Part shown: positions 18,142-22,332 of the stretch, piece by piece
Numbering within the stretch: the stretch's first letter is position 1
How the letters are laid out: each line of letters opens with the position of its first letter
Virus record (IMG/VR): IMGVR_UViG_3300018481_000002
Span: 1-23,198 of that record
Direction: 5' to 3' (one strand)
DNA length: 23,198 bases
From: a virus
Taxonomy: Duplodnaviria; Heunggongvirae; Uroviricota; Caudoviricetes
The notes under the pieces: model-generated
Told to the model about the DNA's origin: nothing
Databases searched by the model: none
What the model saw: only the letters and a program-made list of their open reading frames with translations
Position numbers and translations under genes: made by a program

Positions 18142-18547
18142 ATATGTTCGTTCGATTTTTCTTGTGTTGGAGCTTCTCGATCGTCTTGATTGCACGCTCA
18201 TCCGGGTCCTTGACCCCGCTTAGACCATGCTCAGCAGCCTCCTTGCCTGTACCAAACAAAGGAACAGGCGACACGTACGCATGCGTCGCATCAAGGTCCT
18301 CAGGCGTCATGTGACCAAACGCAGCGGACAGGCGGAGCCCAAGGTTCTGCCCCATGTCGTGACACCCCACCCACCCCGAGCACAGGTGCCCGTTGTTCTG
18401 GTGGCAGCCGAACACTCTCGTCGGCTGGTCGGGGGTGTCGTTGTCGTATGCCGGGAGGCGCTCGTACTCCTCCTCATGCCAGACGCCGCTGGGTACGTCG
18501 CGCCGGTACGGACAAGAACCACACGGGTTCTTCGCCGGAGCCTTCAC
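18140..18547 (-). CDS. DUF6283-like Cys/His-rich protein
   Basis: 'PCGSCPYRRDVPSGVW..EEY..L..YD..T..QP...F.CHQ...LCSGW'. GTG 18547 overlaps the upstream stop (GTGA). Confidence 0.75.
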   Translation of the reverse strand: MKAPAKNPCGSCPYRRDVPSGVWHEEEYERLPAYDNDTPDQPTRVFGCHQNNGHLCSGWVGCHDMGQNLGLRLSAAFGHMTPEDLDATHAYVSPVPLFGTGKEAAEHGLSGVKDPDERAIKTIEKLQHKKNRTNI

Positions 18548-19011
18548 CAGCGCACTTCCGCATTCAGCCACTTGTCCAAAGTGTCACGCAGTCGCTGCAC
18601 CTGAGCCCGGTCCAACACCACATCAGCCTGTCCGGAGAGCATGCCGTGGTAGGTCGACGGGTCTTCACCTACAGAGAGGCGCAAATAGTCGACCAACTCC
18701 CCCGAGTCGTCGATGTTTCCCCGCGCGTCGGGGTGACAGTGGTCTGGGATGGCGGACGCCATGACGTACCCACCCCTGGTGTCGTCCTCGGAGGGGTTCA
18801 CGTGACTCCCCTGGTACACGTAGGGGGCCTTGTCCTCAGGGGAACAGGTGCAAGGCTTGCTCGCATCGAAGTCCCACCAGGCTTCATCTTCCAAGGTGAA
18901 AGCTTCGGGGGAAGACCTAGGTCCCCCTTCTGGTCGTCGGGTCCAGCGATCGCATGTCCCTGGTTCATGATTGTCGTCGTCTATGTGCAGCCAGGTGCTG
19001 TAGATACTCAC
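18544..19011 (-). CDS. Hypothetical protein (~155 aa)
   Basis: GTG 19011 overlaps the upstream TGA; continuous frame to 18544. Confidence 0.7.
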   Translation of the reverse strand: MSIYSTWLHIDDDNHEPGTCDRWTRRPEGGPRSSPEAFTLEDEAWWDFDASKPCTCSPEDKAPYVYQGSHVNPSEDDTRGGYVMASAIPDHCHPDARGNIDDSGELVDYLRLSVGEDPSTYHGMLSGQADVVLDRAQVQRLRDTLDKWLNAEVRW

Positions 19012-19295
19012 GGTTCTACCGGGTAGACGGGGTACACAGTGACCTCCCAAGGGGTGTCGTGTTCACCCAGATTTCTGTTGACGGACTCGTTGTGCGTGTC
19101 GGCCCACTCGAACGCCTCGACCATGTTCAGGAAGGGGCCGTTGAAGTAGTGGCGGTCGATGTCACGGTCGTAGGTGTTCACGATCCACGCCGACGCGTTC
19201 TCCGTCTCCGCGTAGTCCTGTTGGGCGACCAAGTCGTTCAACCAGTTCCTCGCGAACTCCATACGACGGTTGTGGTCCTCCTCAGGGGTTGTCAC
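19008..19295 (-). CDS. Hypothetical protein (~95 aa)
   Basis: ggag RBS before GTG 19295; coupled to the downstream gene. Confidence 0.7.
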   Translation of the reverse strand: MTTPEEDHNRRMEFARNWLNDLVAQQDYAETENASAWIVNTYDRDIDRHYFNGPFLNMVEAFEWADTHNESVNRNLGEHDTPWEVTVYPVYPVEP

Positions 19296-19581
19296 GGCGG
19301 TGTCTCCACTCCTTGTGGGCGATGCGGTGAGCATTCCGACAGTCGTCGCATGAACAGCTGTAGTTGTTGTAGCCGTTCTCGGTGCCGTGAGGGATTAGAT
19401 CCCAAGGGGTCATCGCGAGCCGGTCACGGTACTCGGCTTGCCGGTCGCTGTTGGCTCTTGAACATCGTGTGCAACGGCAGCCAAGGTTGGTGTATCCGTT
19501 GTTGGTGCCGTGCCTCGGGTCGGTCTTGTCCGCTCTGAACAGTTGCTTGGTCAGCTCATAGCTGTGGCTACGCTTCGCCAT
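19282..19581 (-). CDS. Protein with two HGT..GY...CxCxxC Zn motifs
   Basis: 'RHGTNNGYTNLGCRCTRC' and 'PHGTENGYNNYSCSCDDC'. Confidence 0.8.
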   Translation of the reverse strand: MAKRSHSYELTKQLFRADKTDPRHGTNNGYTNLGCRCTRCSRANSDRQAEYRDRLAMTPWDLIPHGTENGYNNYSCSCDDCRNAHRIAHKEWRHRRDNP

Positions 19582-19792
19582 CCTTCAACTCCCATCGACT
19601 GATCAGGTACTCCCTGGTGGCGAAGCCGTTTGAGTTCTTCTTCGCCTTCCACCAAGGACCATCGGTCTTCTGTCCACCCTCTGTCCAGGTCACCGGGCCG
19701 AGAGCAGCCTGCGCAAGTTCCAACTTGCCGAAGACACCCAGAAGCTCGCCCGTGTCGTACGGAATTATCTCTTCAAGGACGTAGACGTACAT
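19568..19792 (-). CDS. Small phage hypothetical protein
   Basis: aggag RBS; 'MYVYVLEE...ELLGVFGKLELAQ...EYLISRWEL' pattern. Confidence 0.75.
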   Translation of the reverse strand: MYVYVLEEIIPYDTGELLGVFGKLELAQAALGPVTWTEGGQKTDGPWWKAKKNSNGFATREYLISRWELKDGEA

Positions 19793-19809
19793 GGTTTCTC
19801 CTATCTACA

Positions 19810-19926
19810 CGCGGCGCGGGCGCAGGTACTAGCTCGCCGCATCCCAGGGCCAGAAAGGTCAAGGAACCCCGGGCGGGGTCATGGCGGTCCTTCGGATCAT
19901 GCCCTTCCGTTGACGCCCGCGCCGCG
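19810..19926. ncRNA. Candidate 117-nt structured RNA closed by a perfect 13-bp stem
   Basis: cgcggcgcgggcg (19810-19822) pairs with cgcccgcgccgcg (19914-19926), with nested internal stems. The element fills the gap from just after the upstream stop (19931-19933) to just before the next RBS. Confidence 0.55.
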
Positions 19927-19930
19927 CTGC

Positions 19931-20215
19931 TTACTGGGTTATCCCCAGGCTGGTCATGACGTCTGCGATCTCTTCATCGGTGGGTGGAGGACATTCGAGG
20001 TCGATCTCCACCACGTACCAGGTGTTTCCGGACTCGACGCCCTTGCACCTCCAGATCAAAGGAGGCTGGCCATCGAACCGCTCCGTCAGTTCGATCAGTT
20101 CAACCACTTCGCCGGTCTCGAATCGGTGCTGCCAGTCGGCCTTGTCACCCGTCACGATGACGTGATCGCCAACCTTGAACCCCTTCTTCGACACTTGCTG
20201 AACTTGCTGAGTCAT
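19931..20215 (-). CDS. SH3/KOW-like small protein, paralog A
   Basis: 'FKVGDHVIVTGD...HRFETGEVVEL...W...WYVVEIDL...PPTDEEIADV'. Confidence 0.75.
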   Translation of the reverse strand: MTQQVQQVSKKGFKVGDHVIVTGDKADWQHRFETGEVVELIELTERFDGQPPLIWRCKGVESGNTWYVVEIDLECPPPTDEEIADVMTSLGITQ

Positions 20216-20217
20216 CG

Positions 20218-20523
20218 TCAACTCCCTCCACGAATGCTTGCCAACACCTCGGCGATCTCATCGTCAGTCGGTGGAACCCATGCGTGTTTCAGATCCTGCT
20301 CGGCCACGTACCAGGAGCGGTCATGGTCCAGCGTTAAGGCCTCCCAGATGACGAGAGTTTCCTCGTGCCCGTGACTTTCCAGGATCGGGTTTTGAAGCTC
20401 CACCTCAACACCAGGCTCGTAGTTGTGACCCCAACGTGCGGTGTCACCAGTGACGATCGCGGTGTCGTGCTCCTGGAAGTTGCTGACCTCTAAAGCTTCG
20501 AAGTGGGTTCTGCTCTTGGACAT
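20218..20523 (-). CDS. SH3/KOW-like small protein, paralog B
   Basis: 'FQEHDTAIVTGD...HNYEPGVEVEL...W...WYVAEQDL...PPTDDEIAEV'. Confidence 0.75.
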   Translation of the reverse strand: MSKSRTHFEALEVSNFQEHDTAIVTGDTARWGHNYEPGVEVELQNPILESHGHEETLVIWEALTLDHDRSWYVAEQDLKHAWVPPTDDEIAEVLASIRGGS

Positions 20524-20678
20524 GACTTGCTCCTAGCGATCCGCTTCTCCAACGTCTTCTTCGAGACGCCCATCCGCTTGGCGATCTGAGCCAGCGAGAG
20601 GCCGCTCCCCCGGAGGAACTCAAGGTTCTCCAAGAAAGCGGCCTCTCTGTGGCTGGACCAGTCAGGCTGAGCCGTCAC
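20490..20678 (-). CDS. Small HTH DNA-binding protein
   Basis: 'GSGLSLAQIAKRMGVSKKTLEKRI'; probable start at GTG 20678. Confidence 0.7.
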   Translation of the reverse strand: MTAQPDWSSHREAAFLENLEFLRGSGLSLAQIAKRMGVSKKTLEKRIARSKSCPRAEPTSKL

Positions 20679-20868
20679 TGGACGACATCTCAGCGACCTT
20701 CTCCGGCTCCACGGCCTCTTTGACCTCCAGGATGGTCCCGTAGGAGGCAAGCAACCGCTTGACCTCCTCCATCTCCCCTTGGTCAACCGCGAGCTTCGTG
20801 AGTCGGCTTACCTCACGGTCGAACTGCTTCCACCAGCCTTCACTGGCCGGTCTCACTTGGCGTGTCAT
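20662..20868 (-). CDS. Hypothetical protein (68 aa)
   Basis: aaggag RBS; ATGA overlap with the upstream gene. Confidence 0.7.
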   Translation of the reverse strand: MTRQVRPASEGWWKQFDREVSRLTKLAVDQGEMEEVKRLLASYGTILEVKEAVEPEKVAEMSSSDGSA

Positions 20869-21173
20869 GACTCCTCCTTCTCGATCTTCGTGATTATGGA
20901 CGATCGTCTGAACCTCTCGAACAGGTCCGGCATCTCCGGGTCGTCGAACCAGATAAACGATTGCCCGCCTATCTCAGGCCATTTTTCAACCCGTGTGATC
21001 GGATGAGGTCGACCGTCGTACAGGAATGGCCCGGCATGACTGTCCGGTCCAGGCCTGCGTTCGTACGTCATGGCGTCCAGGTCCCACAGGTGGGTGCTTC
21101 CTTGGGTGGTCACCAACCATCTGCCGGTCATGTCCTCCGTCAGACGTTCAACCGTTGCCACGTCAGGCGACAT
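20865..21173 (-). CDS. Actinophage-type hypothetical protein
   Basis: 'GRWLVTTQGSTHLWDLDAMTYERRPG...DG...G...SSIITKIE'; ggag RBS. Confidence 0.75.
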   Translation of the reverse strand: MSPDVATVERLTEDMTGRWLVTTQGSTHLWDLDAMTYERRPGPDSHAGPFLYDGRPHPITRVEKWPEIGGQSFIWFDDPEMPDLFERFRRSSIITKIEKEES

Positions 21174-22332
21174 CGGTAACTCCCTTCCCTACAGAGATGA
21201 ACTCCTCCGCCCGAGCAATCCCAGACGGAGTCAGACGACGACCCCGAGGGGTCCGGTCAACCAGCCCGCGTTCCACCAGGAAACGCTCCACCCGACCGAT
21301 GCCCTGCTTGGTCTCACGCAGGATCTGCTGGATCGCAGCCTCACCCACGATGTACTCCACGCTGCCGTCCTTGGTCTCACGACCGAAGTACTGACGCATC
21401 GCAGTCAGGTAGTGGATGTGCGTCCTGGTCAACCCATCCGGCTCCACCTCCAAGAACTCCAACAGTTCATCGGGTGTCGGGTTTCGCTTCAACGCCTTCG
21501 CCATCGCACGGCACGCCAGCACCATCTCCTCGATGATGCGAGGTGTCCCACGGCAAGCGTCAGCGATCGCGAACGCCGTCCGGTCCTCCACTTCAGCTAG
21601 GGCCCGGTGCCGGTCCGCGAAGGTGATCGCGATCCGACCCAGGTCCGTCAAGGAGTACGCCCCGAAGTACGGCTTGATCTTGAACCGGTCCAACACGGTG
21701 TCAGGGAGCGTGTCCTTGTCCGTGGTGGCACCGATGATCGTGATGTCGTCCAACGGAACCGCCTCCCCGTTGGGGAGGTACGCCACCCGGTCCTCCAACA
21801 CCTTGAGCAGGATCTCTGCCCCACGCTTCCCACTGTCGGCGAGCTTGTGGATCTCGTCGATGAACAGGATGTCCTTGTCGCGCAGCTGAGTGGCTGCCTC
21901 GACCAGCGTGTACATGTTGAACGGAGGAACCAGTTCGATGATCTTCACGCCCATGGTCTTGGCGATCAGACGTGCCATCGTGGTCTTGCCGACACCCGGA
22001 TACCCGGACGCCAACAGGATGTGCGGAAGAGCCTCGTCCATCTCCTTCGCCGCCTGGATGTACACCATCAACTGCCGCTTCAACGGCTCTTGGCCGATGT
22101 AGTCCTCCCAGTCGTCGGGCATCTGCACAGTGGCGAAGTCCAGGTGGTTGATCGGGGAGATCCCCGGCTGATCCTCATCACTGTGTACATGAACATCGAT
22201 CTGCGTCGGTTCTATGTTCTGGATCGCCCGCACGATCTGTGCGGCTTGGCGGTCCTGACCGTGCCGGAACAGGGCGTACCCGGTTCCGAGCATCATGGCG
22301 TCGGTTGCGTCGAACTCGTCAAAATCACTCAC
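21163..22332 (-). CDS. ruvB: RuvB-like Holliday-junction branch-migration AAA+ ATPase with an N-terminal extension
   Basis: 'DYIGQE', 'HILLASGYPGVGKTT' (Walker A), 'ILFIDEIHKL' (Walker B), 'IIGATT', 'DRF', 'RGTPR' (sensor 2) and the C-terminal winged helix 'ERFLVERGLVDRTPRGR'. Confidence 0.9.
   Translation of the reverse strand: MSDFDEFDATDAMMLGTGYALFRHGQDRQAAQIVRAIQNIEPTQIDVHVHSDEDQPGISPINHLDFATVQMPDDWEDYIGQEPLKRQLMVYIQAAKEMDEALPHILLASGYPGVGKTTMARLIAKTMGVKIIELVPPFNMYTLVEAATQLRDKDILFIDEIHKLADSGKRGAEILLKVLEDRVAYLPNGEAVPLDDITIIGATTDKDTLPDTVLDRFKIKPYFGAYSLTDLGRIAITFADRHRALAEVEDRTAFAIADACRGTPRIIEEMVLACRAMAKALKRNPTPDELLEFLEVEPDGLTRTHIHYLTAMRQYFGRETKDGSVEYIVGEAAIQQILRETKQGIGRVERFLVERGLVDRTPRGRRLTPSGIARAEEFISVGKGVTDVA

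Follow-up and report, generated by a model that had tools for sequence, protein, structure and literature searches.

A 117-nt non-coding spacer in the genome of an uncultured phage is bounded by a perfect, all-G/C 13-bp inverted repeat (positions 19810-19926 of the window, the entire 23,198-nt stretch of DNA that was analyzed). It most likely represents an enlarged form of the hairpins that lie between many of this phage's genes. We propose that the repeat forms a cis-acting intercistronic hairpin on the sense mRNA, where it could stabilize the message, direct its processing, or cause a pause, and its loop may hold an insertion; we assign this reading a probability of roughly 0.4. The first-pass annotation of the region had put forward a plus-strand small RNA, possibly an SRP-derived decoy or mimic, and, as a fallback, an element of the minus-strand mRNA that acts in cis or is processed. 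The fallback is the interpretation favored by the genomic context, in which a class of hairpins shares the same layout of stop codon, hairpin, Shine-Dalgarno sequence, and ATG, while the SRP decoy is not supported.

The window corresponds to the first 23.2 kb of an IMG/VR virus record, 147,685 bp long, that has direct terminal repeats and a GC content of 61.6%. The genes near the spacer are all on the minus strand, and most of them are small open reading frames that abut or overlap (Table 1). The record belongs to a lineage of uncultured ~145-kb phages for which the host side is probably actinobacterial. The RuvB-like ATPase encoded in the window has hundreds of relatives at ~60-73% identity, mostly on uncultured contigs, several of which are 130-147 kb long, and one contig with such a relative was binned with a Nonomuraea MAG. 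No close relative of the phage was found among cultured phages. The genes that flank the spacer are similarly isolated, with the 74-aa and 96-aa proteins giving only self-matches in a 5.8-billion-protein set, INPHARED, and IMG/VR. The N-terminus of the 74-aa protein has a weak resemblance to DUF7336, at 22.5 bits, which is below the 25-bit cut-off. A leader common to DUF7336 genes was considered and dropped, as the genome has only one such gene. The 96-aa gene and the adjacent 101-aa gene (window 19931-20523) are tandem paralogues joined by an ATGA overlap, and their products have similar C-terminal ends that follow the pattern PPTD[DE]EIA[DE]V.

Table 1 Features in and around the 117-nt spacer, and the second long-loop clamp of the same genome.
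Feature	Position	Strand	Remark
RuvB-like ATPase gene	21163-22332	minus	
62-aa ORF	20490-20678	minus	GTG start at 20678
Paralogue gene, 101 aa	20218-20523	minus	tandem with the 96-aa gene
Upstream gene, 96 aa (94 aa in the other call)	19931-20221	minus	TAA at 19933-19931, 4 nt before the clamp
Clamp 5′ arm on sense RNA	19914-19926	minus	13 nt, all G/C
Interior ("loop")	19823-19913	none assigned	91 nt, 64% GC
SRP domain-IV-like string	19843-19865	plus	5 edits from the real actinobacterial core
Clamp 3′ arm on sense RNA	19810-19822	minus	exact reverse complement of 19914-19926
Shine-Dalgarno sequence AGGAGA of the 74-aa gene	19797-19802	minus	7 nt past the clamp, not sequestered
Downstream gene, 74 aa	19568-19792	minus	N-terminus weakly similar to DUF7336
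17-bp clamp	108761-108854		perfect stem, 60 nt enclosed
tmRNA match	108859-108940		82 nt, 5 nt after the 17-bp clamp

The geometry of the spacer is exact. A perfect, GC-rich terminal helix of 13 bp had been described as lying between a stop codon and the next ribosome binding site, and both parts of that description are borne out: the arms are exact reverse complements with 100% G/C, and they begin 4 nt after a TAA and end 7 nt before an AGGAGA. Read on the minus strand, the TAA (19933-19931) is followed after 4 nt by the first arm, the 91-nt interior, and the second arm; a further 7 nt lead to AGGAGA (19802-19797), and another 4 nt to the ATG (19792). The whole gap between the 96-aa and 74-aa genes is 138 nt, and removal of positions 19810-19926 would leave an ordinary 21-nt junction. 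The genome contains four perfect inverted repeats of at least 13 bp with arms 30-200 nt apart, compared with 0.93 expected per genome in second-order Markov copies of the same sequence. The clamp is beyond chance only moderately; the repeat alone is not remarkable, and what is unusual is its exact fit to a non-coding junction. By rough inference, the expectation for such a repeat exactly filling a non-coding gap is of the order of 0.01-0.05. The 13-nt half-site is absent elsewhere in the genome, and the spacer is single-copy in the 147,685 bp. It is also not an assembly artifact, because a second assembly (an ENA contig of 144,524 bp) encodes identical flanking proteins around the same 138-nt gap, and a ~92%-identical contig spans the region without an indel.

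Folding of the spacer is dominated by the clamp. In a 186-nt context, each base pair of the clamp has a pairing probability of 0.84-1.0 on either strand, and the minus-strand centroid structure consists of the clamp alone, at -29 kcal/mol. The entire spacer folds 1.85-1.91 standard deviations better than shuffled sequences, and this gain comes entirely from the clamp. The 91-nt interior by itself has z = +1.49 on the plus strand and +1.26 on the minus strand, so that it is less structured than shuffled sequence. The alternative pairings tcaa/ttga, ggaa/ttcc, and gggc/gccc, to which the first-pass annotation had drawn attention, can be read in the sequence. Neither the MFE nor the centroid fold shows sequestration of the Shine-Dalgarno sequence by the clamp.

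The interior is also free of recognizable signals. A consensus scan found no promoter-like or terminator-like sites in or beside the spacer, and no motif is shared with the phage's other intergenic regions apart from the ribosome binding site. There is no complementarity of more than 12 nt elsewhere in the phage, and no Rfam family has a significant match to the spacer; a match to Acido-Lenti-1 at 14.9 bits is noise relative to the gathering score of 37. On the minus strand, no open reading frame exceeds 13 codons, and the small-ORF reading was rejected, as the sole 13-codon frame has a badly spaced Shine-Dalgarno sequence. A leader peptide was dropped as well. A decayed gene was likewise rejected for want of GC3 periodicity: the long genes of the genome have GC1-3 values of 0.62/0.47/0.78, whereas the spacer is flat. 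Translational bypass was dropped because there are no matching take-off and landing codons. A retron ncRNA (msr-msd), whose a1/a2 inverted repeats adjoin a reverse transcriptase gene, does not fit a genome that has no RVT_1 match anywhere and thus no reverse transcriptase. Integron attC sites have R″/R′ core boxes (RYYYAAC ... GTTRRRY) and are repeated after each cassette, while the spacer has one partial TCAAC/GTTGA box at one end, is single-copy, and is not part of an array. An attC, loxP, or dif-like site was therefore rejected, with the spacer length wrong and the core boxes absent.

Perfect G/C-rich hairpins are a recurrent feature of this genome. Defined by a stem of at least 11 bp and a loop of 3-25 nt, 19 perfect short-loop hairpins are present where 1.3 are expected. 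Only ~13% of the genome is non-coding according to rough gene calls, yet this fraction holds 14 of the 19. Hairpins listed for the same minus-strand block occur at 40554, 54288, 57147, 64828, 71201, and 76406, and wherever a stop codon is in view the order is stop, a few nucleotides, a G/C-rich hairpin, a few nucleotides, a Shine-Dalgarno sequence, and ATG. Following plus-strand genes, the hairpins lie 4-21 nt after the stops. A distant 144-kb relative, G001, has 14 hairpins of this kind. Perfect G/C-rich hairpins straight after stop codons are thus a systematic form of punctuation both in the phage and in G001, most of them without a clear U-tract.

The clamp shares its stem length and its placement with these gene-end and intercistronic hairpins. 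Its stem is at least 11 bp long, it lies within ~30 nt of a stop codon in non-coding DNA, and a Shine-Dalgarno sequence and ATG follow it. The resemblance does not extend to the loop, which at 91 nt falls outside the 3-25-nt range of the class and compares with 3-19 nt in the other hairpins, nor to copy number or sequence, as the spacer occurs only once and its sequence is unrelated to theirs. Outside called genes, the genome has only one other long-loop clamp, which has a 17-bp stem. Similarity to known gene-end and intercistronic hairpins, such as actinobacterial terminator-like structures without a U-tract and REP-type mRNA stabilizers, lies in the perfect G/C-rich stem a few nucleotides past a stop codon, the co-directional operon, and the Shine-Dalgarno sequence that comes next. 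Classical intrinsic termination at the clamp is unlikely because the tail that follows it, UGUAGAU, is not U-rich and has no U-tract; the stem is G/C-rich as in an intrinsic terminator, but it encloses a 91-nt loop and is not flagged by the terminator scan.

These features suggest how the spacer could function as a cis-acting hairpin. It would be transcribed together with the small accessory or early genes that form a long block on the minus strand. In the resulting mRNA, the two 13-nt G/C arms are predicted to pair nearly always, which would pinch off the 91-nt interior and leave the upstream stop codon and the downstream ribosome binding site at the base of a single very stable helix. In cis, the clamp could block exonucleases that degrade the mRNA, admit double-strand-specific processing enzymes, or cause pausing or weak termination, and any of these actions would uncouple the fates of the upstream and downstream segments of the mRNA. 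Translation of the 74-aa gene would start from its own strong Shine-Dalgarno sequence. The interior is probably a passenger that may have arisen by insertion into, or expansion of, the loop of an ordinary hairpin. No RNase III gene was found in the phage genome, and therefore any processing would rely on host enzymes.

The cis-acting hairpin is consistent with the clean geometry, the genome-wide pattern of hairpins, the stability of the clamp, the signal-free interior, and the relative at ~92% identity with no indel in the spacer. Against it stand the 91-nt loop, which is unlike the loops of the phage's other hairpins, a contiguous helix of 13-14 bp, shorter than is typical of RNase III substrates, and the absence of a counterpart in relatives with ~70% identity in RuvB. 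Two known systems offer partial parallels. Like the RNase III sites of T7 early transcripts, the clamp would place a double-stranded segment between cistrons of a polycistronic phage transcript, and as in rRNA processing stems, flanking complementary sequences clamp the enclosed RNA. Unlike the T7 sites, the helix is only 13-14 bp long and has no internal-loop architecture.

Relatives of the spacer itself are scarce. A search for homologs with the spacer DNA, which had been suggested as a check, returned none from INPHARED, PLSDB, IMG/VR, metagenomes, or 401 actinomycete genomes. Comparison with the relative G001 gave one 21-nt match with E = 0.06, and BLAST against the 401 actinomycete genomes gave only G/C-rich fragments of 22-45 nt, with a best per-genome E of 1.3e-4. 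The pattern of exact arms occurs 0 times in IMG/VR, 43 times in GTDB genomes, and 58 times in JGI metagenomes. These 101 places have similar spacing but are scattered across phyla and have unrelated interiors. The best interior score among them is 17, compared with a shuffle maximum of 14, and the place with this score looks coding. We rejected them as homologs and regard them as chance matches in high-GC DNA. A literature search found nothing relevant to the spacer.

Related phages show how local the spacer is. In the relatives with RuvB proteins of ~70% identity (L002-L006), the region downstream of RuvB is tightly packed and contains no counterpart of the spacer. The spacer is thus of recent origin or can be dispensed with. 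Between RuvB and the DUF6283 gene, these genomes have a shorter interval with different small genes; as this block differs between relatives, it is hypervariable, and the spacer is part of it. One relative alone is informative, a 5,605-nt contig (run X1) that is ~92% identical, spans positions 19697-20878, and has no indel in the spacer, while its neighboring genes have a 9-nt deletion and a 3-nt insertion. Within window positions 18500-21200, the same contig lacks the 102-aa gene (20878-21163 are skipped), has a non-alignable 83-nt replacement of 19616-19697 inside the 74-aa gene, and has several compensated pairs of 1-nt indels at 19322-19345 and 19456-19461. These changes show fast turnover of the small accessory genes. 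The indel-free spacer beside these altered neighbors may be taken as mild evidence for constraint.

The spacer could alternatively be a functionless relic at the level of DNA: a solitary insertion resembling a MITE, REPIN, ERIC, or Correia element, or a scar of recombination or template switching, that arose in a short junction and was tolerated as a self-folding sequence. We consider this possible but unlikely. The sharp ends of a perfect, mismatch-free terminal inverted repeat are what such an insertion would leave, exact removal of the spacer restores a normal junction, the interior carries no signal, and the site is in the hypervariable gene block and is empty in the ~70% relatives. The spacer also matches these elements in its size (they are ~100-130 nt), its intergenic position in a transcribed operon, and its ability to form an RNA hairpin. 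In contrast to these elements, the spacer is present in one copy, has no homolog in the 401 actinomycete genomes or in phages, plasmids, or IMG/VR, and the interiors at all 101 GTDB and JGI metagenome places with the same arms are unrelated to its own. Nor is the spacer flanked by a target-site duplication: the neighboring bases read GCAG and TGTA on the sense strand, or ...CTACA (left) and CTGCT... (right) on the plus strand, with no direct repeat. A Y1 (IS200-type) transposase that could act as its partner is missing from the phage. Elements of the REP, ERIC, and Correia families serve as hairpins in mRNA too, and the relic reading overlaps with the cis-acting hairpin rather than excluding it.

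It is considerably less probable that the spacer gives rise to a stand-alone or processed small RNA from either strand, for example by cleavage of the clamp in the manner of an rRNA stem to release a trans-acting RNA of ~90-100 nt. Precursors of rRNA do use clamp-enclosed layouts for the excision of stable RNAs, the second clamp of the genome (a 17-bp stem around 60 nt, z = -6.25) is located in a cluster of tRNA and tmRNA-like genes, and the spacer has no indel in the ~92% relative. However, the interior has less structure than shuffled sequence, and the spacer has no promoter or terminator, no complementarity of more than 12 nt elsewhere in the phage, no match to an Rfam family, and no homologs. 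A more specific proposal is a long shot: that the clamp is a processing stem with a 91-nt payload, either a trans-acting small RNA from the early polycistronic transcript or a tiny insertion of a novel type directed at gene-end hairpin loops in phage genomes, with the 17-bp clamp near the tRNA and tmRNA-like genes as its sibling.

The 17-bp clamp itself makes a far better candidate structured RNA than the 117-nt spacer does. It starts 9 nt after a stop codon, and none of 200 shuffled sequences folds as stably. The adjacent match to the Rfam tmRNA model scores 55.6 bits (gathering score, 47) and spans model positions 1-374. It covers the tRNA-like domain only, as in a mini-tmRNA-like gene. Genes for tRNA-Met, tRNA-Lys, and tRNA-Arg are nearby, with a tRNA-Leu gene at 80648 and a weak Rfam tRNA match at ~88.9 kb.

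There is a similarly small chance that the inverted repeat is pure coincidence or a protein-binding site on DNA, used by a looping regulator or by the nearby tyrosine recombinase. About 0.93 such repeats are expected per genome, although chance is unlikely to have matched one exactly to the single true non-coding gap of this stretch of genes. The two 13-bp half-sites are 104 bp apart from center to center, or ~10 helical turns, and a small HTH gene and a tyrosine recombinase gene are in the same operon; against a binding site, the half-site occurs nowhere else in the genome, and the spacer lacks R″/R′ boxes of the integron attC type and does not form an array. The arms here are 91 bp apart, compared with spacers of 6-8 bp in known recombinase core sites.

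A plus-strand decoy or mimic derived from SRP RNA that binds Ffh can scarcely be correct. In bacterial SRP, the tetraloop and the 3′ AGCA make the Ffh-binding site, and the RNA binds the Ffh M domain and stimulates the Ffh-FtsY GTPase. The spacer resembles bacterial small SRP (4.5S) RNA (RF00169) in being a G/C-clamped hairpin of ~100 nt with a string, CCCAGGGCC...GAA...GG...CAAGG, that is similar to domain IV. This string can indeed be read in the plus strand, and 18 of 23 positions (19843-19864), including CCCAGGGCC, match the actinobacterial domain IV core. The core sequence given in the first-pass annotation is accurate, as the SRP genes of Actinomadura, Arthrobacter, and Streptomyces contain CCCAGGGCCGGAAGGCAGCAAGG or a close variant. 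However, matches at least as good as this one (5 edits) occur at five places in the phage genome, compared with ~1.75 per random Markov genome, and the resemblance is at chance level. The first-pass annotation had itself recognized that the loop is a pentaloop and the 3′ half degenerate, and the sequence agrees: the loop is AGAAA rather than GGAA, so a GNRA tetraloop is absent, CAA stands in place of the 3′ AGCA, and the 5′ CAGG is present. It had also noted that the SRP-like reading is antisense to the flanking genes, which are both on the minus strand; this is the wrong strand for transcription of the operon, and no promoter was found.

The covariance model gives the same answer. A search with RF00169, named in the first-pass annotation as a check, found no match at E ≤ 10 on either strand of the spacer (801-nt and 146-nt searches), an Rfam scan likewise returned no SRP family, and RF00169 found nothing across the entire phage genome. 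As a control, the model recovered the true SRP RNAs from the Actinomadura, Arthrobacter, and Streptomyces genomes with scores of 62.8-70.4 bits, where membership is set by a gathering score of 40 bits. Therefore, the spacer falls outside RF00169.

The result matters little beyond annotation, where it removes an attractive but unsupported "phage SRP decoy" reading. The lineage punctuates its operons with perfect G/C hairpins, among which the 117-nt spacer is an outlier with a very large loop. It is an ordinary kind of feature at an unusual size and an orphan in sequence, and there is no evidence of a new mechanism. If the clamp does direct RNA processing or carry an inserted payload, the spacer would be a modest and inexpensive way to study how expression is tuned by large soil phages along long operons of tiny accessory genes.

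The gene calls leave a second 138-nt gap in the same operon, at 20524-20661, where a protein is probably encoded. A 62-aa ORF there, overlapping with the 101-aa gene at the latter's start (Table 1), matches Sigma70_r4_2 at 27.2 bits, above the 25.7-bit cut-off, and looks like a small HTH protein. A 32-nt imperfect inverted repeat at 20589-20654 lies inside this ORF.
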